Shown: positions 1,754-48,702, counted from the first letter of the stretch. The stretch is DNA of 64,000 nucleotides from Sedimentisphaerales bacterium (GCA_963708075.1 OY970194.1:1344001-1408000), one strand, 5' to 3'. Made by a program: numbers and translations. Notes: generated by a model from the sequence alone, not told the origin.

Positions 1754-2737
1754 ATGAGTCTGAGAGGCGTATCTCTGGTGATCGTGGTTCTGGCTGCCTG
1801 TGCAATCCCCGTCGCCGCGCAGGAGAAACTCGGTGACTTGGTGGCCCAGGGTGGTTACGACTGGCTGATGGGCCGGTGGGTCGCGACGACCGACCAGGGC
1901 GAGAAGGTGGAATTCCGGTACGACTGGGCGATGGACAAGTACATCGTTGTTGCCGACACCATCATGGGCAACTTCAAGTACCATGGTATCATCATGCTCT
2001 CGCCGAACAGTTACGAGCCGATGGGATTCGGCGCCGACAACAGGGGCGGCCTGTGGAAGGGGACCTGGTCCGAGGACCCCGCCGGGCTGGTCAACAGGAT
2101 CGAGCATACGAGTCCCGACGGCCAGGTGCGCAAGGGCGACATCGTTCACAGCAGAGTGGACGCCGATACGATGGCCGTTGCGATCTACGCCGTCGATAGC
2201 AGCGGTACTCGCAGCAGCGAGCCCTGGACCAAGCAGACCTACAAGCGTCAGACGACGCCGGCGACGGCCGCCGCCTCTGCTGCCGAGCAGAGCGGTGGTT
2301 CATCGGACTACCAGACCCTGGGCGACCTCATCGCACAAGGCGGCTATGGATGGCTCATCGGCAAGTGGGTCGCGACTAAAGACGACCGAACGTACCAGCT
2401 CGAGCACACCCCCATCCTCGACAAGCACGCCGCACTTGTGAATGTGAAGATCGGCGAGTTCCAGTATTGCGGCATGATCACCTATGCGCCCGCGAGCCAG
2501 GAGATTGGCCAGATCGGCGTGGACAACAGGAGCCGCATCTGGAAAGGCACGTGGGAGCAGGGCGATGAGGGAGCGGTGTACAAGGTCGATGTCGCCAGGC
2601 CGGATGGCGCCACGCAGAAAATCCAGATCGTCTACATCAAAGGCGACAACGATACGCTGAAGACCAAAGAGTACGCCGTCGAGGATGGCAAGGCTACGCT
2701 GCGCGACGAGCTGACCTTCAAACGCCAGAAGCCGTGA
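1754..2737 (+). CDS. Secreted protein with two tandem beta-barrel (lipocalin/DUF1579-like) domains
   Basis: AAGGAGG RBS, signal peptide, internal duplication 'LGDLVAQGGYDWLMGRWVAT' / 'LGDLIAQGGYGWLIGKWVAT'. Confidence 0.7.
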   Translation: MSLRGVSLVIVVLAACAIPVAAQEKLGDLVAQGGYDWLMGRWVATTDQGEKVEFRYDWAMDKYIVVADTIMGNFKYHGIIMLSPNSYEPMGFGADNRGGLWKGTWSEDPAGLVNRIEHTSPDGQVRKGDIVHSRVDADTMAVAIYAVDSSGTRSSEPWTKQTYKRQTTPATAAASAAEQSGGSSDYQTLGDLIAQGGYGWLIGKWVATKDDRTYQLEHTPILDKHAALVNVKIGEFQYCGMITYAPASQEIGQIGVDNRSRIWKGTWEQGDEGAVYKVDVARPDGATQKIQIVYIKGDNDTLKTKEYAVEDGKATLRDELTFKRQKP

Positions 2738-2788
2738 CAGAAAGTCACGGCAACCGGCCGGGAGTCTGTTGACGGAATCCGTTCGAGA

Positions 2789-3538
2789 TCAGAACCGGAT
2801 GCGCCCGCCGAACATGTAGATTGGGCCGCTCAAATCGATGCCGGAGTCTTCCTTGTCGAAATCGTACTGGAACTCGAACAGCAACTCCGCGTTATCGCTG
2901 ACGGCCACGTTCAACCCTGCTACAACGAACGGGAAGAATCCGTGGGCGATGGTGTCCGTGCCTTCCTCTTCGTCGATGAGAGTGTGGAATGTGCCGGGGA
3001 AGTGCGGGTCCTCGAAGGTCTCCGCGTACTCGTACTGCCAGTAATCGAGGAACCAGAAGTAGCCGATGCCGGCCCCGACGTAGGGCCGGAGGCTCCTTTC
3101 ATAGCCAAACGGGTACAAGCGGGCGGCCAGCCGGATGTCGAGCATGAAGAGGTCGTCGAGGTAAGACTCTTCGATCAGCACATCCTCATCGATGCTGACG
3201 TAGTCGTCGTCGATCGAACCCAGAGAGGAACCGCCGACGCTGAAGGCCACGTCGACGTAGTCGTCGGCGAACACCGGGCTGGCGATCTCCAACTCCAGTC
3301 TCGCCCGGGTCGTTTTGTCGAGATCGATGGGGTCTTCCACTGTCTGAGCGCCGATCTTCAAGGCGATCCCGGGGCCGGATTGGCCGGCACACGGCGTCGT
3401 CCAGGCGAACGAGGCGGCGAGCGTGCATATTGTGACCGTTATCAGGCTGCCTCGGATTGTGTCGCCACGGGAGGAATTGGTGATGTGGTTCCGGCGAGAT
3501 GCGTGACACCCTCTGCGGATAGACCCTGTTCGTGCCAT
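2789..3538 (-). CDS. Outer-membrane beta-barrel protein (OmpW/OmpA-like membrane domain); start uncertain
   Basis: Amphipathic strands 'LRPYVGAGIGYF', C-terminal 'GGRIRF' with terminal Phe. Confidence 0.7.
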   Translation of the reverse strand: MARTGSIRRGCHASRRNHITNSSRGDTIRGSLITVTICTLAASFAWTTPCAGQSGPGIALKIGAQTVEDPIDLDKTTRARLELEIASPVFADDYVDVAFSVGGSSLGSIDDDYVSIDEDVLIEESYLDDLFMLDIRLAARLYPFGYERSLRPYVGAGIGYFWFLDYWQYEYAETFEDPHFPGTFHTLIDEEEGTDTIAHGFFPFVVAGLNVAVSDNAELLFEFQYDFDKEDSGIDLSGPIYMFGGRIRF

Positions 3539-3671
3539 GCTTTTCATCTCCATCAAGAGACTGAAGGTTTCAGGCCTAATCGTCCGATCTTTCGGCTCCA
3601 CCAATAAAAGGCACCCGCAGGCGTGTCGGTAACGCTCGAAAAGGGCCGAATCGCAAGGTCGGCTCCGACGA

Positions 3672-4220
3672 TTACTGTGGCGGGGGCGAGGATTCGCTGG
3701 GGCGCAGGGTCACGTCGGCCCCGAGGGGGCGGACATCGAGACAGGCGACCAGGAAACGGATGCCGGATTTTGCGTCGCCTGTGAGACGTTCGGCTTCTGC
3801 GGCCAAAGGATTCGGGATGAGACCCACCCATTGCGTTGCCCATGGTGCGCCCCCCGGGATGAATGCTGTCGTGGCTGGGCCGGATGCGTGCGGCCGCCCC
3901 GCCGGCGTCGAGAGAGAGAACAGGACCGCCGCGGCGATGACGAGGCACGCCGCCGCAGCCAGCGCCATGCGGATTCGAAAACCATGATTTGGCGGCTGCA
4001 TACGAGTGACGTGCGGGAGAATCCAGGGAGAGGGTCGTTCCGGGGCTTGCTGCCATCTGTCGGCTTCGGATCTCAGGCGTATGTCGATGGTACGGCAACT
4101 CTGAAGGAATTGCCTGCAACCCGCGCAGTGCGTGACATGCCGCCTTGCCCATCGATTGCCGGGACTGCCGGAATCGGCGGCACTGGAAATCATGAATCGG
4201 AAGAACCAGCAGAGCATCAC
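3672..4220 (-). CDS. Putative zinc-binding anti-sigma factor (ZAS/zf-HC2)
   Basis: HxxxCxxC ('HVTHCAGC') followed by a TM helix; directly downstream of an ECF sigma. Confidence 0.75.
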   Translation of the reverse strand: MMLCWFFRFMISSAADSGSPGNRWARRHVTHCAGCRQFLQSCRTIDIRLRSEADRWQQAPERPSPWILPHVTRMQPPNHGFRIRMALAAAACLVIAAAVLFSLSTPAGRPHASGPATTAFIPGGAPWATQWVGLIPNPLAAEAERLTGDAKSGIRFLVACLDVRPLGADVTLRPSESSPPPQ

Positions 4221-4260
4221 ATGTCTCCTGACATCATTATCCTCCGGGCCTGTGATCGTA

Positions 4261-4814
4261 TCATTTGTCCACGTCCATGGCTTCGGACTGCCTATTCAGA
4301 CACTTCGCCAAGCTCACGCGGGCGCGGTAGAGCAGCACTCTGACGCAGACCTGCGACTTGCCCATTGCCGTGGCGATCTCCTTCACGGACATGTCCTCCG
4401 CATACTTGAGCCACACTACCTGCCGCTGGTAATCCGGCAACTCGGCCACCTTCGCCCACAGGCCCTCCCGTTGCTCCTGCCTGTCGATTTCTTCGTCGGC
4501 GCAGGTCTGTAGACGAAGGCTAAGGGCACTGGATTGCGGCTCTCTTTTGCGTCGTCGGCTGACGGCCAACCGCCTCGCGATCGTGAACAGCCACGTCGAG
4601 AACTTCCATGAATCATCATACCGGCCGAGGTTCTGGTAGGCTTTGATGAACGTATCCTGAACCAAGTCTTCGACTTCATGGCGATCGCGGGTCTTTCGCC
4701 GCAGGAATACGTGCAGCCTGGCGCATACCGATGGACCAGCTCGGCGAACGAGGCCTGGCAGCCTTGTTGGGCCCGCCAGGCCAGTTCCTCCGAATCCAAG
4801 TCCCGCAGCATCAT
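4261..4814 (-). CDS. ECF RNA polymerase sigma factor, split by a 1-nt frameshift near 4719
   Basis: N-part 'ELAWRAQQGCQASFAELVHRY' and C-part 'VQDTFIKAY..FSTWLFTIARR..MSVKEIA..VRVLLYRAR'; restoring one C joins them. Confidence 0.85.
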
Positions 4815-4816
4815 TC

Positions 4817-5785
4817 CTACGGGGTTGTGGTTTGCGTCTGCTGCTGTTGCTTCTTCTGCCATTGCTCTTTCAAAAATGCACCGATGGACTGTGCCGGGGC
4901 CTCAAAGCGCGCCTGAACGATCTTATCGTTACGCACAACGTTCACATTCTTGGCAAGCTCGCTGAGCTTCGGCTGTTCCTGGGCGGCCAACTGGGCCATG
5001 GCCACTACGCCTTGCGCCATCTTCAGGATGTTGTCCGCCACTTCCGGCGACTGGCCTTGCAGCCGCAACCCGATGAAGACCTTCTCCGCAGTCTCGCCGG
5101 CGGCCAGGGAAAGTGACTCCGCCTGCTTGAAGATGGCCGCCTTTGGGTCCTGGCCAACGATGTCGCCAACACCGATGGCGGCAATCTGCAGGAACGTGCC
5201 GCTTTCACCCTGGGGGATCTGATTGAGCAGTTCCGCCGAAGCGCCTGTCCCCGACCCCTTGAGTGTATCCACGGCCCCCTTCAGAGCGTCCAAGCCGATG
5301 CTGATCGCCACCTGCTGTCCCTTGTGGACGTATCCGTACATGAGCTGATCGGCTGACGGGCCCTTCTTCTTGTCTTCATTCAGCCAGCGATAGAGCGTGA
5401 CGTCCTGATAAGAGATCTCCTGGTACTGCGGGTTCCATCGCACAATGCCCAGGAGCTTGTCCACATCGAACTTGCCGTTGAAGATAGCCACGGCGTTATT
5501 GCGATCCTGTCCCTTGCCGTATATTGTCACGCCTCGGATGTCCGTGAGCGGGTTGAAGGAGAATGCGTCTACGAATGGCTGCATCTTCTCCTCGACGCCT
5601 TGGGCTTTCAACTCGGCCAGGAGCAGCTTGCCGATAGCGGAATTGCGGAACGCGTCCAGATCGGCGTGGAGTGTCCAGTTGGCCGTGGGGCCGATCTCGC
5701 TTTTCTGCAATGGAACTGCCATCGCCGGGACGGCCGCCAGACACAGGCCCCCCAGAAGAACGCATGTCAATGCTCTCTTACCCAT
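4817..5785 (-). CDS. Secreted/periplasmic hypothetical protein, first gene of the ECF operon
   Basis: Signal peptide ending AMA, AGGAG RBS, 2 nt from the sigma start. Confidence 0.75.
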   Translation of the reverse strand: MGKRALTCVLLGGLCLAAVPAMAVPLQKSEIGPTANWTLHADLDAFRNSAIGKLLLAELKAQGVEEKMQPFVDAFSFNPLTDIRGVTIYGKGQDRNNAVAIFNGKFDVDKLLGIVRWNPQYQEISYQDVTLYRWLNEDKKKGPSADQLMYGYVHKGQQVAISIGLDALKGAVDTLKGSGTGASAELLNQIPQGESGTFLQIAAIGVGDIVGQDPKAAIFKQAESLSLAAGETAEKVFIGLRLQGQSPEVADNILKMAQGVVAMAQLAAQEQPKLSELAKNVNVVRNDKIVQARFEAPAQSIGAFLKEQWQKKQQQQTQTTTP

Positions 5786-5891
5786 GATTCACTCCTTTTC
5801 ACATTCTACAGGATAGCTGCTGTCCGCACCATAGTCCGGGGCGGACCATGCCGGTCGCCACAAGCGATTTCGCGGCATTTCTACCCCCTTC

Positions 5892-5918
5892 TACGCGCGA
5901 CCTGCTGGAAAGGTTACA
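5892..5918 (-). promoter_or_regulatory. Putative ECF-type promoter of the ECF operon
   Basis: Minus strand TGTAAC-N17-CGTA, matching the AAC/CGT ECF consensus. Confidence 0.45.
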
Positions 5919-6003
5919 GAGCGGGGGCACGAAGTCTTCTCAAGGCTATACAGACATGATATCATCCAGCCGGCTCTTTCAGCCTGAGAAAAAGGAGACG
6001 ACC

Positions 6004-6969
6004 ATGGCACGTAAATTGGGACGGCGACAGGTGTTAGGAGCGGCGGCTGTCGGCACGCTGCTCAATTCCCATTTGGCGCACAGTCAAGCGCAGGGTGCAG
6101 ATTCTGCGGCGGAGCGAGAGGTGCGGCTGGAGTTTCTCCGGCCGAAGGAGATCGACGAGGCTCGCAAGGCGTGTCCCACGATCTACCAGCCGCTCGGAAC
6201 GATCGAATGGCACGGCGTGCACAACGTTGTCGGTGTCGATGCCGTCAAGGCTCATGCGCTCTGCGTTCAGGCCGCCAGGAAGGGCGGGGGGGTCGTTGTG
6301 CCGCCGCTGTACGGGGGCGTGGGCGGTTTGAGCGAGCCCCATACGTTTATCATGGACCCCGAGGACAACGTCTTCTCCAAGCTCCTCCGGCCGTGGCTGG
6401 AACAACTGTGCCGGGAGATGGCCCGTGACGGGTTCCGTGCGATCATCATCCTCACGGGCCATTACGGGGCCGCCCAGCAGATCGTTGTCCGCGGAACCGC
6501 CGTCCGCATGAGCCGGGCACTGGGCATTCCCGTCCTCGGCACGCCTGAATATATGCTGGCCCTGGACGAGGGTTATACCGGCGACCACGCCGCCTGGGGC
6601 GAAACCTCGCTCATGATGCACCTGTTCCCCGGCACCGTCGATCTCTCGCGACTGGGCGAGCCTCCGTATCAGGGCGTCGGCGGCCGCGACCCTAAGCAGT
6701 CGTCCGCCGAGGATGGACGCAGGATCACCGAGACTATCGTCTCGCGATTGGCGACACTGGCCCAGAAGATGCCGACATGGAACGAAGAGACCCTGGACCG
6801 CTTTGTTGATGCGGAGGCAACCCTAGTCGCGAGGCAGCTTTCCGCACCGCGAGGCAGGAACGCGATCTGGACCGCCTGGCGCAATAACGCCACCGCGATG
6901 CGCGACTATGGCAAGCTGCTTGCCGAGGAGCGTTTCGACGAGATCAAGGCCGCTGTCGGACGGCTGTAG
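6004..6969 (+). CDS. Creatininase/creatinine amidohydrolase family protein with Tat-like leader
   Basis: 'PLGTIEWHGVH..GVD', 'LTGHYG', 'DHAAWGETS'; 'GRRQVL' leader; AAGGAG RBS. Confidence 0.85.
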   Translation: MARKLGRRQVLGAAAVGTLLNSHLAHSQAQGADSAAEREVRLEFLRPKEIDEARKACPTIYQPLGTIEWHGVHNVVGVDAVKAHALCVQAARKGGGVVVPPLYGGVGGLSEPHTFIMDPEDNVFSKLLRPWLEQLCREMARDGFRAIIILTGHYGAAQQIVVRGTAVRMSRALGIPVLGTPEYMLALDEGYTGDHAAWGETSLMMHLFPGTVDLSRLGEPPYQGVGGRDPKQSSAEDGRRITETIVSRLATLAQKMPTWNEETLDRFVDAEATLVARQLSAPRGRNAIWTAWRNNATAMRDYGKLLAEERFDEIKAAVGRL

Positions 6970-6984
6970 GTAGGCGCGATCTGC

Positions 6985-8483
6985 TCATCGGACGTCGTAC
7001 CGCAGGAATGACACGAAGGACGCGGCGAAGAAAAGGATATTGAACAGGAGCAGAGCCCCGATGTCCCAGGCCGCAAGGCCCAGAGACTGCCAGAATCGGT
7101 AGTCTCGCTCCTCGAACTTGGGCACGCCGGCGAAATCCACGGGCTTGCCGGAGATCGCCGTCCACTTTTCGACGGAGAATTCAGCATCGAAAAGAAAGTG
7201 CACGCTGTTCGGGTCATCCTCATCCTGATCCAGAATATACTGCCTGAGATCGTCCTGATACTGCCTGGCCTGTCGATACAGGCTCGCACATCGTTGGATT
7301 CCCGTGCCCGCGATTGCCTCAGCGGCGCGCTGGTAGAGCACGATGGGCGATAAGCAGACGGCGTTCCTGCCGGCCTGCGCCTGTGCCAGCATCTGGTTGT
7401 ACAATTGATCCCACAGCCTGCTCATGGCGGCCGCCTTCTCATTGCAGTACCGGGCGGCGGCGGGCGGGTTGACCGAGGGATAGGTGCGGTCTTCCTGCCA
7501 GAGTTCGTGGGCGTTCTTGCCGTACTTGCTGGCCTCGGCGTCATGGTCGAACTGGAGCATCGTATTCAAGAGGCTGTCACGAAACTGGCTGCTCGGCGGA
7601 AGGCGGACGGTGGCTTGTGCGATGATGCTCCCGAAGCTTGGATCAGCACGACCAGGCCCGCCCAGAGCAGCAGTAGAACAACAATGCTGCTGACCGAATG
7701 AGCCACCCGGCTGGAAACGACCATGGCCAGGACGATCCAGAGAAACAGTCCCAGCATCAGAGACCTGGCAGGATACCCGGTGGAGCAGGATATGAGCAAG
7801 CCGCCATTGAAGACCGCGGAAATGAAAAGTAGCGACGCCACGTACATGATCCCCATACGGACCCAGTCCGACGCTGCGAGTTCCACGGCCGGGGAGAGGG
7901 ACAGCATCAGGATGGCCACCAGAAACGCCATCGTCAGGGGCACCGCCAGGGTCATCATGCCCGCGAGGGTCTTGCCGAGCAGTATCTGGTGGCGGGCCAC
8001 AGTGCCCGACGCGGTCAGCAGAAGGGTACCCGCCATGCGCTCACCGGATATGGCGTCGTATGCAATCAGCAGGGCCAGCAGGCTCAGCACCGTTCAGTAC
8101 AGGAGTGACAGGTCCAGGCTTTGCAGGATCGCGAGGCACGGATTGGCGGCAACCGCGCCGCCGCCCAACTCCGGTATGGAGTATCTATCGATGCTGGCGG
8201 AGCTGCTCACCTGGCTTTCAATCCCTCTACTGAAGACCGAAAGCACCGCAGGTGGCCGGTAGACGCGATGATTGCTCATGACGTGATCGTAGACCTTGGA
8301 CGCCATGAGCTCCGCCTCGTCAGCGGCCACGCTGTCGTGGTATTCCTTCCATTGCCGCTCGTAATCGCTCAGTAGAACGGGCATGAGCACCGCCGTCAGC
8401 GCCACAGTGACAATCGTGCCGACGAGGAACCTGAACATCATGAGGTTGAGCAGCAGATCCTTTCTCCCGATCTTCCAGATCAT
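6985..8483 (-). pseudogene. Disrupted ABC-2 type permease (DUF3526-like), apparently a fusion of two paralogues
   Basis: In-frame TGA at 8094-8096, frameshift near 7640, duplicated 'S..L..LW..L' segment; 'YDAISGERMAGTL' and C-terminal 'FLRYDVR'. Confidence 0.75.
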
Positions 8484-8506: not shown

Positions 8507-9781
8507 TCAGTTGAGTTGTAGACCCGCTTCTCTCAGGGCGGCCAGTGCCCGCTTGTGATTCCCGTTATACCCGAGCCACGCATCCACGATCCGGCCTTGC
8601 CGGTCGATGATGCAACTCATCGGCGCAGCCGCTGTCTTATCTCCGTAGCCGTCGAGTACCACCCTTCTGGCGGTTGCGGAACAATCGTGGATCATCGGGA
8701 ATGTCACCGGGTTCTCGCGCAGGAAGGCGCGTAAGATGCGTTCATCATCCGTATAGTTGAGACCGAGGACTGCCAGCCCGCTATCCTTATGCTTTTCGTA
8801 CAATCCCTGGAGACGCCGCATCTCCTCGCGGCACTGGGGCGAGCCACACTGCCACAGATAGAGCCAGATGACCTTGCCGCGATAGTTCGACAGCTTGATC
8901 TTACCTCCGTCGGACGCACACAATTCGAAATCCGGCGCCTCTTGCCCGCTCTTGACAAGCATGTCCTCCGGCTTGGGCATACTCCAGGCGCGGTAATCCG
9001 CCGGCGGCGACCAGGCAAACGTGTCCGGCGGCAGGTCGCCGTTGACGTGGATGTCGGACCATTCTTCCACGGAGATTTTGTTGTCCGCGACTCGCACGAT
9101 CTCCTTGATCCTCCGCGGCAGGTGATCGCGCCTGGAGATCCACAGGTGCCGAGTCCGCTGGGCACCCATGTAGCTGATCTCGATCACATCGCACTTCTCG
9201 CCCCCGACCCTGTTGGTGCCTCGACTGCAAATCCCGTCCATATACGGATCGAACGTGTCCGCGTGGCGGTGGAAAGTGCTTGGATCGAGCACGCATCCGA
9301 ACCAGGCGATCCCGAGCCGGGCGACCTCGCCGGCAACGGAGTCGCTGCCTGACGAAGCTGCTTTTCGGATGTAGACGTTCGAGCTGGTCTTGTCAAAGCT
9401 TTCCTGATCGTCGCACCACAGGTATGGCCGGTCCCCCGACCAGAAGACCCAGAGGTCGTTGCCGTCGCCGATCAGGGTGCTGCGCTTGGAGCTGGGACCG
9501 TTCGTCAACTCGATGTGGAAGAAGCCGGGTTTCGCCAGCCAGACTGTATAGCTTGACTCACGGCTGTCCGAGCCGCTGCAGACACTTACATAGGAGAGAT
9601 TGTCGGCGCCGTGTATCGCCTGGATCATCGCATCGTACACGCCGTGTGCGGCGGGCTCATCCTTCACGATCATCGCGGGCCGCCATCGCTCCGGCGAAGC
9701 GCCGACGACGTAGAGGGCCCAGGCCTCCAGCACAAGTGCCGCAGCGACGATGATCATCCATGTCCGGGTTCTCTTTGCCAT
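8507..9781 (-). CDS. LolA-like/DUF2092 domain fused to a TlpA/redoxin domain
   Basis: 'LWISRRDHLPRRI', 'GQEAPDFEL..GKVIWLYLW..CREEM', 'IIDRQGRI'. Confidence 0.8.
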   Translation of the reverse strand: MAKRTRTWMIIVAAALVLEAWALYVVGASPERWRPAMIVKDEPAAHGVYDAMIQAIHGADNLSYVSVCSGSDSRESSYTVWLAKPGFFHIELTNGPSSKRSTLIGDGNDLWVFWSGDRPYLWCDDQESFDKTSSNVYIRKAASSGSDSVAGEVARLGIAWFGCVLDPSTFHRHADTFDPYMDGICSRGTNRVGGEKCDVIEISYMGAQRTRHLWISRRDHLPRRIKEIVRVADNKISVEEWSDIHVNGDLPPDTFAWSPPADYRAWSMPKPEDMLVKSGQEAPDFELCASDGGKIKLSNYRGKVIWLYLWQCGSPQCREEMRRLQGLYEKHKDSGLAVLGLNYTDDERILRAFLRENPVTFPMIHDCSATARRVVLDGYGDKTAAAPMSCIIDRQGRIVDAWLGYNGNHKRALAALREAGLQLN

Positions 9782-37557: not shown

Positions 37558-38334
37558 TCATAGTGCCTTTTGGCCCGCGACGGCGAGGACGAGGGCGTAG
37601 ACTTTGTTTGCACCGGCGGCTTTGAGGGTTCGGGCGCATTCATTCAGTGTCGCGCCGGTGGTTTTGATGTCGTCGACGAGGCAGATGGTCTTGACCGCGA
37701 AGGGGTGGTCCTCCCGCACGGCAAATGCGCCGGCGACATTTCTGACGCGGGCGGGGGCTGTGGTGGCGACGGGCTGGGCCCGGGTGCGACGGATGCGGAC
37801 CAGGTCGGTGCTGATTCGAGCCCGCGGGTGTTTGAGACGCTTGGCGATCAGGTGGGATTGGTTATAGCCTCGAAGCAACCGGCGGGTCCAGTGCAGTGGG
37901 ACGGGGACGAGCAAATCGATGTCACTATAGAAGTTGCTGCCCTGCAAAGCGGCGTCGGCCAGCGGGGTGAGCACATAGGCAAGCTCCGTCCGGTCGTGCT
38001 TGAAGGCCAGGATCATCTGCTGCAGCGCCTCCGAGTAGACGCCCGCGCGGGCGATCCCGTCGAAATGGATTTCCTGTTCCCGGCAGGCGGCACAGGCGCC
38101 GGCCACCAGGCCATACTTGCTGGCGTCCCGGCCGCAACGCGGACAGTAATCGCCGGCGGTACACGTCAGCAGTTGACTCCAGCATCGAGCGCACAGGTCT
38201 TCATTTGCCTCCATGATCCTGCCGCCACAATTGGCGCACACGGCCGGCCACAGAAGGTGATTCAAACCCTGCCAGGCCAGAGTCGTCACACGCTTCGCTC
38301 GCCGGACCGCATTGTGGAGCTTAGATGCCTCCAT
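37558..38334 (-). CDS. comF: ComF family protein (double zinc ribbon plus PRTase)
   Basis: Four CxxC, 'VPLH..RGYNQS', 'LVDDIKTTGATL'. Confidence 0.92.
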   Translation of the reverse strand: MEASKLHNAVRRAKRVTTLAWQGLNHLLWPAVCANCGGRIMEANEDLCARCWSQLLTCTAGDYCPRCGRDASKYGLVAGACAACREQEIHFDGIARAGVYSEALQQMILAFKHDRTELAYVLTPLADAALQGSNFYSDIDLLVPVPLHWTRRLLRGYNQSHLIAKRLKHPRARISTDLVRIRRTRAQPVATTAPARVRNVAGAFAVREDHPFAVKTICLVDDIKTTGATLNECARTLKAAGANKVYALVLAVAGQKAL

Positions 38335-39100
38335 GGCGGCTATTATACTCCGGCGGGACCGAACCGGTCAAAGGGCTTGCCGGATCCCGCTGCGGTTGCT
38401 GCAATGACGGCATCTCGGAAATCGGTGCGTTCCTGGGAATCAGATCAATATACATGAAGCGATTGTCACGCTTGATCGTCAATCCGGCAGTAAATGGAAC
38501 GGCCCCACGGAAAATGGGTCCGTCATAGACGAAGGAGTGAAACTCGCCTCGCTCGCCGCATGGATCCACGCCGGCCGGCAGATCGGCCAGGAACGCGGGA
38601 TCGTAGTCCCGGCCGGCAAACGCAGGATTCAATGCCTCCAGATCAACGCAAGTAATGACAGCCTTGAAGCCGGTCTCAATGAATATCCTCGCCAAGACCT
38701 CGGTGTTTCTCTGCCACAGCGGGAAAACCGCCTGCATGTTCACCCGGGACAGGCTCGTTTCTCTATATTGCCTGACGTCCTCCAGGAAGAGATCTCCGAA
38801 AACCACCGCCTCAATGCCCTGTTGGCGGCAGCAGGTCAAGTAGCCGCGCATTTTCGCGTCGTATCCTTCCTGGGATTCCTTCGCGGCAAGATAGATCTTG
38901 TCGATGGGCAATCCCAGTTCCGCCGCCTGTCGTTCAATGAGTGCGGTTCGCACGCCGTGCATACACACGCGGTCGTAATCCTGTGACACAGTCGTCAGAA
39001 GTCTCTCGATGGAGTACACGCCGGTGCGACGGATTTCATGAAGAGCCATCGCACTATCTTTTCCGCCGCTCCACGCCAGTATTGCCTTAGTCGCCATCAT
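38321..39100 (-). CDS. Diphthine-ammonia ligase-like PP-loop ATPase (MJ0570/Dph6 family)
   Basis: 'WSGGKDS', 'FGDLFLED', 'DPCGERGEFHSFVYDGPIF'. Confidence 0.9.
   Translation of the reverse strand: MMATKAILAWSGGKDSAMALHEIRRTGVYSIERLLTTVSQDYDRVCMHGVRTALIERQAAELGLPIDKIYLAAKESQEGYDAKMRGYLTCCRQQGIEAVVFGDLFLEDVRQYRETSLSRVNMQAVFPLWQRNTEVLARIFIETGFKAVITCVDLEALNPAFAGRDYDPAFLADLPAGVDPCGERGEFHSFVYDGPIFRGAVPFTAGLTIKRDNRFMYIDLIPRNAPISEMPSLQQPQRDPASPLTGSVPPEYNSRHGGI
38342..38371 (-). promoter_or_regulatory. sigma70-type promoter immediately upstream of comF
   Basis: TTGACC-N18-TATAAT, 7 nt before the ATG. Confidence 0.6.
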
Positions 39101-39195
39101 CCGGTCTCTTACAGCAGGTCCAGTCATGCGTTAGTTCGGCATCCAATGCCGCGTTTGTTCCGACGTCATTACGGGTCAAGCGCGTCGCCTCATGT

Positions 39196-40035
39196 CTATG
39201 GCTCGACGCTGCCCCACTCCACGTAGTCCGGGACATAGTGCGGTGCATTGGACGTGCCGGCCGAGCCTGTTCTCGCGAGCTTGTGCACATACTGGGCCTC
39301 CGAGATCAGGGTCCCGCAGTGTCCGTCTGCAAACGCCGCGGCGGCTCGGTCGAGGTGCCGAAAACACGTCGTCGGACTGCTGTTCTTTCGCCAGGTCTTC
39401 CCGTTGAACAGGTAGGGCGGGTCGAGCATGGCCGTGTTGCTGACGTTCAGGCGTTTGCCGGTGAGGTCCCAGCTCAGGAGCGTGTCGGCAAATGTGAGCA
39501 CCTGGTCGGGCCCCTGGATCGAGCAGACCTTCTGCCAGGGCCGAAATCCGATTCCCGACCAGCCGCTATGCGAGGGGCTGAGGAAATACCCGTTATACCC
39601 GTACGTGCTGGTGATCCACTTGGGATCATCCGGCTCGCTGAAGGGTCTGCCCTGAAGGCCATAGGTCCCGTACGCCTGGGCAGGGCATTCATAGACGCCC
39701 TGTGCCCGAAGCTCGCCGGCCAGATACGGCCACATCAGTCCCGCCGTGTGATCCACACCATCCGAATTCAACCGGCCCCACCAGAAGGTCCGCGCATTGA
39801 TGCAGGTGGGCAGGGCGTAGTCATCATGGTCATGCGCGTAGGTATGGAAAGCCAAGCCAAGCTGCCGGACACGGCTCATGCATGTCACGGATTTGGCCTG
39901 GCTTCGCGCCCTGCCCAGGCTCGGCACCAGCACGGACATCAGCAGGGCGACCACGCTGATGGAGACGAGCACCTCCACCAGCGAGAAGGCCGCCCTGCAA
40001 TGAATTGTCGTGAATGGTTTCTTCGTCGGACTCAT
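39196..40035 (-). CDS. Prepilin-type N-terminal cleavage/methylation protein with H-X9-DG motif (DUF1559-like)
   Basis: 'AFSLVEVLVSISVVALLMSVLVPSLGRAR', 'RHLDRAAAAFADGH'. Confidence 0.9.
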   Translation of the reverse strand: MSPTKKPFTTIHCRAAFSLVEVLVSISVVALLMSVLVPSLGRARSQAKSVTCMSRVRQLGLAFHTYAHDHDDYALPTCINARTFWWGRLNSDGVDHTAGLMWPYLAGELRAQGVYECPAQAYGTYGLQGRPFSEPDDPKWITSTYGYNGYFLSPSHSGWSGIGFRPWQKVCSIQGPDQVLTFADTLLSWDLTGKRLNVSNTAMLDPPYLFNGKTWRKNSSPTTCFRHLDRAAAAFADGHCGTLISEAQYVHKLARTGSAGTSNAPHYVPDYVEWGSVEP

Positions 40036-41447
40036 GGCTGATGGAACTTCATCAAGGCGTTGGGACCCACCGAGTAGACGCTGTCGTGCGTCACGACCGG
40101 GCTGTTGCCGCAGCCGTCGACCTGGCTGACCACGAACCCGGGATCGCCGGGGCGTCGAGTGACATCAAGGACATAGAGAGAGCCGTTGCCATTCGGACGC
40201 CACGAGAAGTCGTAGTACGGCTCGCTTTGCGCACCTACGTAGAGCATGCCTGATGCGTAAGTGGGTTGAGCGATCCAGCCTCCCACCGTGACGTCAGGCA
40301 GGTCCACCGATGTGTCCCACATCATCTCCGCCCTGTCCCCAAGATCACGAAACGCCTGGACTTTGGGCTTTGAGTCGTAGTCGCCCGCTGCGCCGCCGCT
40401 GACGAAAATCATCTCCCCGACTACTACAGGGATCGTATCGGTACGTTCGACCGCTGCCGTCCAGGCGATCCGCCCGTCGTTGCAGTCGATCTTGACGAGC
40501 GTGGAGTTGTTCTCCCCGGTGTCCCGGTCCCAGAGATACGTGGCGGCATAGAGGAATCCGTCTTGGGTCAGGGTCACGCCCCCACAGAACGGACCCACAA
40601 TCCGATGGTTGGGGTCGGCCGCGATCCAGTCTTCACTGGGAGCCGTCCAGATCGGCTCGTCCGGCTCGGACGCTGCACTTGCGTCGAATGCATGAACGTG
40701 TCCGCCGGCTCGTTTGTCTGCTCGTTTCTCTGCGCTTGCGACATACACACATCCGTCCAGGTAGCTTGGTGAGTTTCCCAGCGTGTTGCCCAGGTGGTAT
40801 CGCCACAGGATCTGGCCCGGCTCATACGGATTATTCGGCTCGTTGGCGTCCAGATTGATGCAGTAGAGATGCCCCTGGCCGTCCGCTGTTCCGTATCCGG
40901 CGTCCGTGAGAAACGCGCGTGCGTGGGGCAAATCCAGGGCCACACAAATGGATGCGTTGACTACAGGCCCGTCCAGTTCCGCGGGAGCATCCCAAATGGA
41001 ACTGCCGTCGTTGGCGTCGAGGGCGAATACCCTGAATCTCGAGCCGATCAGCACGGCGTTGTGCTTCGTATCCACGCAGGGTGTCGACCAGGAGCCCCCG
41101 TCGGAAGCCTGGTCGACAAGGGTGGACCAGAGCAGCCGGCCTGAGTCCGCGTCCCACGCCGCCACCTTGCTGTTCGGTTCTTCATCGCACCTTGCATAGG
41201 CAAAGACTTTGCCGGCATATAACACGGGACCGGTGGCCCCCTCGAACTCGATCTGCCGATTCGGGTCCTGCGGATCCGTCGTGGCCTCCCAGGCCAGAGT
41301 ATCGGCATTCAGAGTATTCGGCCCATCCACCGCAATGAACTGCCGGGAAGCATCTCCCCCCAGATGTGTCCACTCCTGTGGCTCCGCCGCCGCCAGACTT
41401 GCTGCAAAACCTGCCAGAACTGCAATCGCCCAGACGTGCCTTCTCAT
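40032..41447 (-). CDS. Secreted PQQ-like (BamB-type) beta-propeller protein
   Basis: Signal peptide, AAGGAG RBS, repeated 'AWDADSGRLLW', 'ALDANDGSSIW', 'IDCNDGRIAW'. Confidence 0.85.
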   Translation of the reverse strand: MRRHVWAIAVLAGFAASLAAAEPQEWTHLGGDASRQFIAVDGPNTLNADTLAWEATTDPQDPNRQIEFEGATGPVLYAGKVFAYARCDEEPNSKVAAWDADSGRLLWSTLVDQASDGGSWSTPCVDTKHNAVLIGSRFRVFALDANDGSSIWDAPAELDGPVVNASICVALDLPHARAFLTDAGYGTADGQGHLYCINLDANEPNNPYEPGQILWRYHLGNTLGNSPSYLDGCVYVASAEKRADKRAGGHVHAFDASAASEPDEPIWTAPSEDWIAADPNHRIVGPFCGGVTLTQDGFLYAATYLWDRDTGENNSTLVKIDCNDGRIAWTAAVERTDTIPVVVGEMIFVSGGAAGDYDSKPKVQAFRDLGDRAEMMWDTSVDLPDVTVGGWIAQPTYASGMLYVGAQSEPYYDFSWRPNGNGSLYVLDVTRRPGDPGFVVSQVDGCGNSPVVTHDSVYSVGPNALMKFHQP

Positions 41448-41496
41448 TTGATCGCTCCTTTCCGAGACTGTGCCCCTGACGCGGGAGCACGCCAAT

Positions 41497-41530
41497 AAAA
41501 AAACCGTCGTTCTCGCGAGAGAAACGACGG
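41497..41530 (-). terminator. Intrinsic terminator in the riboswitch expression platform
   Basis: Minus strand hairpin CCGTCGTT...AACGACGG followed by T7. Confidence 0.8.
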
Positions 41531-41630
41531 CTATCATTGGCGATTGCCTGCAGATCGTGCTGTGAATAGGTCAGCTCGATCACACGTGCGTTCCAGGTCG
41601 CGAGAACACAATACAATGTGCGGCTAACCA

Positions 41631-41804
41631 CAGGCAGGTTTTCTGACTCGCGTCCTACGTCGAGGCCCTTCCCATTCGCACGCGCGAACAGTGGATAACA
41701 CCTCTCGGATTTCCGATAGCCATCGGAGCGAACGCTTACAGCGGCGCGACCGTCGCGGAATTTCACCGCGTTCCCATTTCAGTATCTCAAAGTCCCGAGA
41801 CCTG
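41631..41804 (-). ncRNA. Cobalamin (B12) riboswitch
   Basis: Minus strand AGGT...AAATGGGAACGCGGTGAAATTCCGCGACGGTCGCGCCGCTGTAA...CCACTG...TGGGAAGG...GAGTCAGAAAACCTGCCTG. Confidence 0.92.
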
Positions 41805-41966
41805 CAGTCAGGTTATGCACTTCCCAAAGAGCTGACGCGATGCTACGGGGCAGGTGCGGGACTGTCAATCAGAAAATGACTGATGACATCTTTTTTTTGC
41901 GTCGAGGGGGTAAACACGTGTGCGTCGGCGCATCGCAAGTGTCTGGCGTTGAGCATGTCGCTCGCC

Positions 41967-48498: not shown

Positions 48499-48702
48499 TC
48501 GTCCCTTACGGGACTGGCTTTTGCCCTCGGCCCCGGTTCCCCAGCGATCAATCGCTGGGCTATTCTCTATCGCCCTGCGGGCTTGGACTTTGCTTCAGTC
48601 CTCTTGCGTCGGCCCGTCCGCCCCACGGGGGCGATCGACACTAGCCCACCGTTTCAACGGTGGGTACGATAGTCAATCCTATCTCAAAGCCCCGCAGGGG
48701 CG
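48499..48702. repeat. Cluster of short REP-like palindromes (CGTCCC..GGGAC / CCCAGCGATCAATCGCTGGG type)
   Basis: gtccc-ttac-gggac, cccagcgat-ca-atcgctggg, cccaccgtt-tc-aacggtggg, gcccc-gca-ggggc. Confidence 0.65.

Follow-up and report, generated by a model that had tools for sequence, protein, structure and literature searches.

The btu loci of Bacteroides thetaiotaomicron (BtuB, BtuG, BtuH, BtuJ) are the closest described counterparts of the operon analysed here. There, a cobalamin riboswitch represses an exported B12-scavenging operon of an auxotroph, a beta-propeller included (PMC10404256; PMC13398666). This propeller, BtuG, is a seven-bladed lipoprotein that caps the TonB-dependent BtuB in corrinoid uptake (PMC10404256), and its family accession is PF16819 (PMC13398666). 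The operon from the Sedimentisphaerales bacterium studied here (GCA_963708075.1) appears to share this layout, with a cobalamin riboswitch in front of exported proteins that include a beta-propeller. Unlike in the btu loci, however, the propeller is predicted to be eight-bladed, is PQQ/BamB-like and has no lipobox, the genome lacks both a TonB-dependent receptor and DUF4465, and the partner of the propeller is a prepilin-type protein. We know of no btu locus for which such a partner has been reported.

The BtuB/BtuFCD pathway of E. coli offers a second comparison. A locus with BtuF, BtuC and corrinoid ATPase relatives exists in our genome as well, and in a related genome (G047) the same type of switch controls a TonB-B12 receptor (1.4e-100) together with TonB. 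In contrast to the E. coli pathway, there is no BtuB here and the switch controls a propeller and a pilin, not an ABC importer.

The prepilin-type protein resembles GspG/EpsG, PilA and ComGC/ComP in its prepilin leader with F at +1 and E at +5, in its long N-terminal helix and, as far as the structural model goes, in its beta-sheet head. It differs from these type II pseudopilins and type IV pilins by a head that is about twice as large, by an H-X9-DG motif, two invariant cysteines and a C-terminal PHYVPDW, and by a gene under vitamin-riboswitch control that is not located near a pilus machine. The same architecture and motif characterise the DUF1559 (PF07596)/H-X9-DG proteins of Planctomycetota and Verrucomicrobiota, which have dozens of paralogs in this genome; our protein is set apart from them by a PF07596 score under the cut-off and by the tie of its subfamily to a riboswitch. 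To our knowledge, such pilin-like proteins number dozens to hundreds per genome in the two phyla and have no known function. Competence pili provide a precedent for pilus-driven import. A literature search returned no published account linking cobalamin riboswitches or B12 to DUF1559/H-X9-DG pilin-like proteins, or to Phycisphaerae/Planctomycetes. On balance, we consider it somewhat probable that the operon is a B12-repressed two-gene envelope module, which likely captures corrinoids and is predicted to cooperate with a secretin-based machine.

The riboswitch and the two genes behind it

The window, which is the whole stretch of 64,000 nucleotides that was analysed, carries the following features, given here in the direction of transcription:

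41840..41868, minus strand: sigma-70-like promoter TTGACA-17-TAGCAT, just 5' of the aptamer (10 of 12 consensus matches; a consensus match only)
41616..41820, minus strand: complete cobalamin riboswitch aptamer, RF00174
41497..41532, minus strand: intrinsic terminator (expression platform), a GC-rich hairpin at 41532..41502 followed by U7
40032..41447, minus strand: secreted eight-bladed PQQ/BamB-like beta-propeller of 471 aa, with Sec signal peptide and no dockerin
40032..40035, minus strand: ATGA overlap of propeller stop and pilin start, from the ORF coordinates
39196..40035, minus strand: B12-type prepilin-like protein of 279 aa (DUF1559-like, H-X9-DG), with a 16-aa leader followed by F17..E21
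38321..39127, minus strand: PP-loop ATPase (Dph6-like; Diphthami_syn_2 PF01902, 1.4e-33), 68 nt 3' of the pilin
37558..38334, minus strand: ComF-family phosphoribosyltransferase, a neighbour outside the module

The preliminary description of this DNA had proposed a full cobalamin riboswitch followed by a terminator, and both are borne out. The Rfam covariance-model scan places RF00174 at 41820..41616 (-) with 84.6 bits (gathering score 31.5; E 2.1e-19) and covers the whole model (positions 1-189 of 189); the span given earlier includes the riboswitch correctly, except that its end at 41804 stops 16 nt short of the 5' end of the aptamer. Among the 150 of 470 first-pass candidates that were scored across the 7.5 Mb genome, no other one matches RF00174, the class survey gave the same result, and the riboswitch can be aligned with the switches of 13 related loci. 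The terminator folds with -30.3 kcal/mol (z -6.0), a value equalled by none of 200 shuffles. Judging from this fold, the hairpin and U7 between the aptamer and the propeller start codon form a platform able to turn the gene off, with a predicted response to the ligand. A simple terminator scan did not list the hairpin at 41532..41502, which was found by reading and folding.

Translation of the propeller likely starts at the ATG at 41447, which has AAGGAG just before it and lies past the terminator. The first in-frame ATG, at 41537, sits within the terminator region and is the less likely start. The signal-peptide propeller described earlier keeps its reading frame and its Sec peptide, but its start likely moves to 41447. 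Its N-terminus, MRRHVWAIAVLAGFAASLAAA, reads as a Sec-type signal peptide without a lipobox cysteine. The protein matches PQQ_2 (PF13360) at 5e-16 (59.5 bits against a gathering score of 27.6), and its predicted structure (mean pLDDT 84.2) has eight-bladed folds as its top Foldseek matches, namely BamB, YxaL, tetrathionate hydrolase and the designed Cake8. The TM-score against BamB, normalised to the target, is 0.70-0.78, and yet the protein is not BamB proper, with NF008351 at 39 bits against 423 and TIGR03300 at 26.7 against 285; it is BamB-like in fold alone. In its own genome the propeller is unique (3.8e-210, with the next frame at 1.7e-14).

The analogy with BtuG, on which the preliminary description had leaned, does not hold beyond the fact that both proteins are propellers, and we see no kinship between them. 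PF16819 is not among the four Pfam families matched by the propeller at E<=0.01, and BtuG is found neither among the approximately 50 Foldseek matches listed nor among the 60 listed of 71 profile matches to PDB sequences. In addition, the fold matches are eight-bladed, the lipobox is missing and there is no BtuB to be capped.

The ATGA overlap at 40032-40035, also noted earlier, is confirmed by the ORF coordinates and likely reflects translational coupling of propeller and pilin, as far as gene arrangement can indicate it; most relatives have a propeller-pilin gap of 50-230 nt instead of an overlap. The prepilin assignment stands as well. N_methyl PF07963 scores 22.0 bits (cut-off 21.2) and TIGR02532 17.0 bits (cut-off 16.3), the leader is followed by the motif A-F-S-L-V-E with F at +1 and E at +5, and among 24 orthologs E21 is invariant and F17 nearly so. 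A helix is predicted at residues 19-69, after the leader. The H-X9-DG motif is read in the sequence as H227-X9-D237-G238, with H227 and D237 invariant and G238 nearly invariant in the same 24 orthologs. TIGR04294, which we take to be the H-X9-DG prepilin-associated domain, gave no match at E<=0.01, although the motif is present.

The relation of this pilin to the DUF1559 family requires some care. PF07596 (DUF1559/SBP_bac_10) reaches 19.9 bits, under the gathering score of 23.3, and aligns over profile positions 2-33 of 268 only; because this score is under the curated threshold, we name the protein DUF1559-like and not a member. Its nearest ESM Atlas clusters carry PF07596, and its best NCBIfam pilin match is GspG (1.2e-05). 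Foldseek of the head against the PDB gave no match at E<=0.001, and in a wide VIA structure comparison the top 22 rows were all pilins or pseudopilins, with weak scores (Z <=4.6). The head has 37 invariant columns over 24 sequences, and the C-terminus is conserved as IGSxG..N.PHYVPDW..W. Among the 83 pilin-profile frames of the genome the protein stands alone (4.8e-112 against 4.8e-29 for the next), and it is the only one of them with the C-terminal PxYVPDW motif. Judged from its sequence, this pilin forms a subfamily of its own, with tight conservation and a link to the riboswitch. Neither the propeller nor the pilin resembles any known B12 binder.

Recurrence of the module in Phycisphaerae

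The survey covered 80 Phycisphaerae loci, each with a gene related to the propeller; one ortholog with 45% identity (P0085) is attributed to Anaerohalosphaera lusitana. An orthologous pilin lies directly 3' of the propeller in 78 of them, and the remaining two loci end 45 and 204 nt past the propeller. Riboswitches were searched with an nhmmer profile, the weak matches and misses of which were rechecked with Rfam. A riboswitch was found 5' on the same strand in 69 loci (60 by the profile, 9 by Rfam); the 11 loci without one hold at most 1280 nt upstream, and every locus with more than 1.3 kb upstream has it (69/69). RF00174 was above the gathering score in all 37 loci scanned by Rfam. The order riboswitch-propeller-pilin is beyond chance, since it recurs in 69 of the 80 related loci, and the question raised in the preliminary description, whether propeller and prepilin pairs elsewhere also stand under riboswitches, is thus answered positively. 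A terminator-like hairpin 3' of the aptamer is present in 32 of the 69 related loci compared to 9 of 68 control stretches.

The content of the related operons also points to B12. In one locus, the first gene behind the switch encodes a PduO-type adenosyltransferase (L025; PF01923, 3e-59), and PduO homologs occur in the operons of two more (L031 and L045), which makes three loci in all. Most loci additionally encode a PEP-CTERM protein, and most orthologous propellers carry a dockerin; both are absent here, and for this reason the local form of the module may depend on further parts. What the window contains is a minimal version made up of propeller and pilin, with no BtuH-like binder. The PEP-CTERM proteins of the related loci matched no Pfam family besides PEP-CTERM. 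Their family A4 (29 sequences) matched nothing but the sorting tail among PDB sequences at E<=1, and a homolog of this family was not found among 61 candidates in our genome.

On the scale of the class, the propeller module is patchy and occurs in 20 of 151 genomes. The pilin has an RF00174 of its own in four sampled genomes (G098, G012, G005 and G022), where the next genes are unrelated (HDOD, an SDR on the other strand, PS decarboxylase), and in three of these (G098, G012, G005) it stands alone behind the riboswitch. In 31 further genomes without the propeller, identified among the 151 by cross-matching by hand, the best pilin match lies within 3.6 kb 3' of RF00174 on the same strand. The constant element of such riboswitch units across the class is the pilin.

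B12 supply and envelope machinery of the genome

The genome has 16 B12-binding-domain matches above the cut-off, and neither CbiC nor CobS was found in it. The bacterium appears to be a B12-using auxotroph, where the auxotrophy is read from two marker families in a genome that is 92.8% complete. The search of this genome detected no TonB-dependent receptor, hence no BtuB, and no match to DUF4465 (BtuH/BtuJ, PF14717), for which the B. thetaiotaomicron control was positive. In agreement with the preliminary description, btuB and btuFCD were not found in the window. One BtuFCD-like locus is present in the genome, with BtuF, BtuC and a corrinoid ABC ATPase as its best matches and with no switch. 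The pilus machinery is abundant: there are 14 secretins above the cut-off, 3 prepilin peptidases (Peptidase_A24) and 26 T2SSE matches, with about 20 T2SS/T4P ATPases. The riboswitch operon contains no pilus-machine gene.

TonB-dependent receptors occur in 3 of the 20 propeller-bearing genomes and in 67 of the 131 others, a contrast that is confounded by kinship. In families f7, f15, f16 and f21 no sampled member has such a receptor, with or without the propeller. On the other hand, the receptors are present in the propeller genomes G110, G012 and G022 and in a large part of the 31 genomes that have the pilin, but no propeller, behind a switch. Therefore, the module is not simply a substitute for TonB-dependent receptors, as several carriers have them.

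Proposed function and its alternatives

The reading that we favour on balance would work as follows. When B12 is scarce, the riboswitch would let transcription pass through the terminator, and the propeller and the pilin would be made. The pilin would be cut by a prepilin peptidase and mounted on a pilus or pseudopilus as a B12-specific subunit, and the propeller would be its soluble partner, either a capture protein or an adaptor towards the BtuF-like binding protein. With the help of one of the secretin-based machines, pilus or type II secretion-like, of which the cell has many, the two proteins would bring B12 across the outer envelope, and the BtuFCD-like importer encoded elsewhere would carry it over the cytoplasmic membrane. 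The function would thus be corrinoid acquisition. The link to B12 acquisition, which the preliminary description had also drawn, is supported by the context, that is by PduO in the operon of three loci, by a B12-using genome without CbiC, CobS and TonB-dependent receptors, and by the switch on BtuB and TonB in G047. We lean towards the pilin rather than the propeller as the B12-specific element, because the pilin is constant in the riboswitch units across the class.

It could even be, and we offer this tentatively, that DUF1559-type pilins in general act as receptor subunits, each specific for a ligand, on retractile pilus machines that use a secretin. Planctomycetes and related bacteria would import nutrients over the outer membrane with these machines, either alongside TonB-dependent transporters or instead of them; the B12 pilin with its propeller would then be a BtuB-free route for B12. 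The B12-type pilin is the cleanest entry to this family, because the riboswitch names the ligand. The riboswitch is an unusually direct label, as it indicates that this pilin subfamily is wanted only at B12 scarcity. If the pair does capture or import B12, the DUF1559-type family would gain its first ligand, a 1.3 kDa vitamin would have a route over the outer membrane without a TonB-dependent transporter, and a testable role could be assigned to the numerous secretins and pilus ATPases that these bacteria have. The matter bears on competition for B12 in sediments and soils; genome predictions based on BtuB only would call these organisms incapable of B12 uptake.

One would argue that the pilin serves export instead of import: a type II machine would release the propeller through the secretin, with the pilin as a dedicated pseudopilin, and the propeller would bind B12 outside and be recaptured. 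Pseudopilins classically drive secretion, GspG is the best NCBIfam match of the pilin, 14 secretins are available, the local propeller carries a Sec signal peptide but shows no anchor, and the dockerin of many orthologs is like that of secreted or surface-docked proteins. However, a dedicated exporter fits poorly with a pilin that stands alone behind the switch in three genomes and behind it without any propeller in 31 others, and no return route for the loaded binder is evident in a genome devoid of TonB-dependent receptors. We therefore regard this explanation as unlikely.

Attachment induced by starvation, in which the cell would display the pilin and a propeller adhesin to adhere to B12 producers or to particles rich in the vitamin, which the two proteins themselves would not bind, is more doubtful still. 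Such a role would agree with pilins, dockerins and PEP-CTERM surface proteins as typical parts of adhesion, and with the lack of likeness of both proteins to known B12 binders, but the adenosyltransferase in three of the operons points to handling of the cofactor itself, and the 37 invariant columns of the pilin head are easier to reconcile with one constant small ligand or partner than with surfaces that vary.

It is hardly probable that the pair is unrelated to uptake and instead replaces or bypasses a process that needs B12, in the way that metE stands in for metH. Other bacteria do have B12-independent isoenzymes under cobalamin riboswitches, and the nearest fold match of the propeller, tetrathionate hydrolase, is an enzyme; against this, the signal peptide and the prepilin leader show that both products are exported, no known B12-dependent process could be replaced by a pilin, and pilin-only riboswitch units come without an enzyme. 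Least credible of all is that only the propeller has to do with B12, with an unrelated pilin gene as a passenger downstream: with 83 pilin-profile frames in the genome a pilin beside any gene is not rare, but this one is the distinct orthologous subfamily and sole PxYVPDW carrier described above, lies behind the propeller in 78 of the 80 loci and has a separate riboswitch where it is parted from the propeller.

For the adaptor role of the propeller within the proposed corrinoid capture module, a possible model exists. The PDB entries 9p3f/9p3g describe the BamB-like propeller Rv3035 in complex with the siderophore-binding protein FecB. Like Rv3035, which as an eight-bladed BamB-like propeller partners a periplasmic solute-binding protein, our propeller might hand B12 over to the BtuF-like protein, where the likeness is at the level of the fold only (Foldseek E about 1e-13, profile E 0.028).

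The genes further downstream vary between loci. The PP-loop ATPase, reported earlier to follow the pilin closely, is indeed present, but its membership in the module is not upheld, as a homolog takes that position in only 1 of the 80 loci (L015); it is probably not a part. In general, the genes 3' of the pilin differ among the loci; those for MutS2, a helicase, DUF6259, ATP-grasp and glyoxalase and a convergent rpoC were found there and were rejected as parts of the module. The same applies to the ComF-family gene, which lies 3' of the pilin in 10 of the 80 loci, all of them within L002-L018.

A terminator-coupled B12 riboswitch and its genes

The cobalamin riboswitch of the window is genuine and terminator-coupled, and all the elements that the preliminary description had listed from reading the sequence are found there. 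From upstream to downstream the locus contains:

TTGACA-17-TAGCAT, promoter-like site, its 3' end 20 nt upstream of the aptamer
41820 to 41616, minus strand, cobalamin riboswitch aptamer
41532 to 41497, terminator (GC-rich hairpin and seven U), about 85 nt past the aptamer
41447 to 40032, minus strand, secreted PQQ/BamB-like propeller of 471 amino acids
40035 to 39196, minus strand, prepilin-type pilin of 279 amino acids
38321 to 39127, minus strand, PP-loop ATPase of the Dph6-like family, 68 nt downstream of the pilin gene
next after the PP-loop ATPase, ComF-family gene

When the full window was scanned with Rfam, the aptamer matched RF00174 with 84.6 bits (gathering score 31.5) across model positions 1-189 of 189, which agrees with the earlier claim of a full-length riboswitch. 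The terminator, likewise claimed between the aptamer and the propeller start, is absent from the output of the automated terminator scan; it was recognised by reading and folding, and the hairpin folded alone reaches -30.3 kcal/mol (z -6.0), a stability attained by none of 200 shuffles.

The propeller start was taken to be the ATG at 41447, which lies past the terminator and is preceded by AAGGAG; the in-frame ATG at 41537, the start in the ORF list, was set aside in its favour. The predicted signal-peptide beta-propeller is borne out by an N-terminal Sec-type signal peptide, recognised by reading and lacking a lipobox cysteine, and by a match to PQQ_2 (PF13360, 5e-16). The ATGA coupling was also correctly described: at 40035..40032 the TGA of the propeller overlaps the ATG of the pilin. 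The latter has a leader of 16 residues followed by F17 and E21, matches N_methyl (PF07963) with 22.0 bits, barely above the cut-off, and carries H227-X9-D237-G238 near its C-terminus, as expected from the prepilin/H-X9-DG assignment. The PP-loop ATPase matches PF01902 (1.4e-33), its best NCBIfam matches being archaeal diphthine-ammonia ligase models, far below their cut-offs. Elsewhere in the window, at 48540-48583 (plus strand), lies a match to the Acido-Lenti-1 small RNA family (RF01687; 41.3 bits, gathering score 37).

Conservation of the riboswitch, propeller and pilin

The propeller-pilin pair behind a B12 riboswitch is conserved. A large protein collection yielded 91 propeller relatives at E<=0.001, and those with a source name come from Sedimentisphaerales, Phycisphaerae or Planctomycetes; many orthologs bear a C-terminal type I dockerin (PF00404; for example at 5577-7283 of locus L084), which the window protein lacks. 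Using an alignment of 20 relatives as query and one genome per species, we compared the best 80 of 159 confirmed loci. A pilin ortholog directly follows the propeller on the same strand in 78 of these 80 (34-72% identity), the remaining two loci stopping 45 and 204 nt past the propeller, and 69 have a riboswitch upstream in the same orientation; the order seen in the window thus recurs in related genomes. An nhmmer profile of 14 riboswitches accounted for 60 of the loci, and Rfam added nine, namely all the nhmmer-missed loci having at least 2 kb upstream. RF00174 scored above its gathering score in 37 of 37 riboswitch loci scanned (14 + 9 + 14 weak nhmmer matches); the nhmmer profile is the sole basis for the other 32 of the 69. 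No riboswitch was found in 11 of the best 80 loci, where the upstream DNA spans just 7 to 1280 nt; the three of these that were also examined with Rfam gave no match. A terminator-like hairpin past the aptamer is present in 32 of the 69 loci versus 9 of 68 control stretches; among the closer loci, L002-L020, 17 of 18 have it.

Most Phycisphaerales loci and four closer ones have a gene of 270-350 amino acids between the riboswitch and the propeller; among 14 of these products scanned, Pfam found a PEP-CTERM sorting tail alone in 11 and no match in three. At locus L051 three tandem PEP-CTERM genes (2064-4844) occupy this place. The first gene after the riboswitch in three of the best 80 loci encodes a PduO-type cobalamin adenosyltransferase (PF01923, 3e-59, at 3456-4067 of L025; homologs at 3484-4053 of L031, 77% identity, and 3456-4016 of L045, 71%), and a PEP-CTERM gene, the propeller and the pilin follow in that order.

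The genes 3' of the pilin differ among loci and include MutS2, helicase, convergent rpoC, DUF6259, ATP-grasp and glyoxalase. The PP-loop ATPase reported closely downstream is indeed there, but as a member of the module it had to be rejected and is regarded as a local neighbour: a homolog follows the pilin in one of the best 80 loci (L015, 6652-7275, 35% identity), and its position between pilin and ComF is shared by the window and L015 only. ComF follows the pilin in 10 of the 80, every one among the closer loci. Therefore, the core consists of the riboswitch, the propeller and the pilin. Among individual surroundings, L009 encodes a DUF1638 protein (7421-8137; PF07796, 2e-37) directly 3' of the pilin and then a TPR protein, L010 has an ORF of the same size (7432-8148), and L008 contains a glycine riboswitch (9221-9324, plus strand; RF00504, 57.4 bits) some 1.8 kb 3' of the pilin.

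The class Phycisphaerae was surveyed with four queries in a single sample of 151 genomes, including the genome that holds the window. The propeller (E<=1e-20) occurs in 20 genomes (by family, f7 5/8, f14 4/4, f15 5/7, f16 3/4, f21 1/1 and f3 1/14, plus our own genome), RF00174 in 143, mostly in single copy, the pilin profile (E<=1e-25) in 86 and the TonB-dependent receptor (TBDR, PF00593) in 70. Pilin matches form two tiers, one full length at 1e-75 to 1e-117 in the 20 propeller genomes and one at 1e-26 to 1e-55. Coordinates were cross-matched by hand: 16 of the 20 have a riboswitch at most about 2.2 kb 5' of the propeller, and of the other four, one has the propeller at a contig edge and three have no riboswitch coordinates among the matches listed. 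In family f14 the pilin stands apart from the propeller with a riboswitch of its own, followed by an HDOD gene in G098 and by a convergent SDR gene in G012, while G022 (C44, locus L084) has two divergent riboswitches 95 nt apart, at 4009-4192 (minus) and 4287-4494 (plus), one leading to the pilin and the other to a PEP-CTERM gene and the dockerin-bearing propeller. A riboswitch, a second-tier pilin and phospholipid genes follow one another in G005 of family f9, and in 31 further propeller-less genomes the best pilin match lies within 3.6 kb downstream of a riboswitch on the same strand. Therefore, the constant partner of the riboswitch in the class is the pilin, not the propeller.

Apparent B12 need and candidate import machinery of the genome

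The genome, one contig of 7.5 Mb rated 92.8% complete, has 16 matches above cut-off to the B12-binding domain PF02310, and neither CbiC nor CobS was found at this completeness. One locus elsewhere in the genome gave best matches to BtuF (1.4e-32), BtuC (8.5e-80) and a corrinoid ABC ATPase (1.3e-64), all three below their equivalog cut-offs, and no riboswitch was found at that locus. The genome also has no TBDR barrel. Taken together, these results suggest that the organism needs ready-made B12 and has an inner-membrane importer but not the classical outer-membrane one. It is unusually rich in machinery of the pilus or type II secretion-like kind, with 14 secretins above cut-off, three prepilin peptidases (A24), 26 T2SSE ATPase matches and 83 frames hit by the pilin profile. 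Among these 83, the riboswitch-linked pilin scores 4.8e-112 versus 4.8e-29 for the next, and no other carries the PxYVPDW motif at the C-terminus; the propeller, too, is unique in the genome (3.8e-210 versus 1.7e-14 for the next).

The window represents the minimal form, propeller and pilin in a genome without TBDR, without DUF4465 (the control genome of B. thetaiotaomicron gives a match) and without any homolog of the PEP-CTERM family of related operons. In this form any B12 specificity would have to rest with the propeller or the pilin. The classical arrangement exists in the same class: in the module-less relative G047 (C39, locus L086, 1861-5326) a TonB-B12 receptor (1.4e-100) and a TonB-family gene lie behind the riboswitch. 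TBDRs occur in 3 of the 20 propeller genomes versus 67 of the 131 others, a contrast that is suggestive only because it follows family lines; many second-tier pilin genomes do carry TBDRs.

Possible role in corrinoid acquisition

The setting is a B12-using genome without synthesis markers or TBDR, and we lean, with reserve, towards the reading that propeller and pilin together help to acquire corrinoids at the envelope. In this reading one of the many secretin machines would mount the pilin as a B12-specific subunit, the propeller may serve as its capture or hand-off partner, and import would be completed by the BtuFCD-like system. Against this reading, neither protein resembles known B12 binders, the operon lacks a pilus or secretion machine gene, the module is patchy (20/151 class genomes), and in some genomes it co-occurs with TBDRs. 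Riboswitch-controlled B12 scavenging operons are already known, and the operon of the window would be a variant of these; import through a pilus would, if true, be a mechanism new in kind. A search of papers available without subscription returned no link between DUF1559/prepilin-type proteins and cobalamin.

The model of the propeller (pLDDT 84.2, pTM 0.86) has tetrathionate hydrolase (E 1e-16), BamB (TM-score 0.70-0.78 on the target) and YxaL as top fold matches, together with the BamB-like Rv3035, whose structure was determined with the binding protein FecB, and a designed eight-bladed propeller. A profile search of PDB sequences gave BamB and PQQ dehydrogenases, plus dockerins that match the orthologs' dockerin tail. 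Kinship with BtuG, which the preliminary description had brought in for comparison, was not supported: BtuG is not among the matches listed in either search, and the propeller has no Pfam match to PF16819, given as the BtuG family in PMC13398666. According to PMC10404256, BtuG2 is a seven-bladed lipoprotein that caps BtuB and whose central cavity binds B12, whereas the window propeller lacks a lipobox cysteine and is not related; since BtuG2 binds B12 in that account, there is nevertheless precedent for a propeller as B12 binder. It is unlikely that the propeller is exported as a secreted B12 catcher. Attachment induced by starvation is a still less probable function, and a B12-sparing substitute is very improbable. 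The idea that the pilin is a mere passenger can hardly be maintained, being contradicted by the pilin's own riboswitches where the pair is split.

For the pilin, which in corrinoid acquisition would be the subunit carried by the secretin machine, the model (pLDDT 78.7) combines a long N-terminal helix with a head rich in sheet. Foldseek gave no match to it at E<=0.001; every one of the top 22 rows of an independent structure search is a type IV pilin or pseudopilin, though the scores are weak (Z <=4.6), and in the ESM Atlas its closest clusters consist of DUF1559/prepilin proteins from Verrucomicrobiota and Planctomycetota. Across 24 pilin orthologs 37 columns are invariant, including two cysteines, TSTYGYN, DPP, PT.FRH and a C-terminal P.Y...W.
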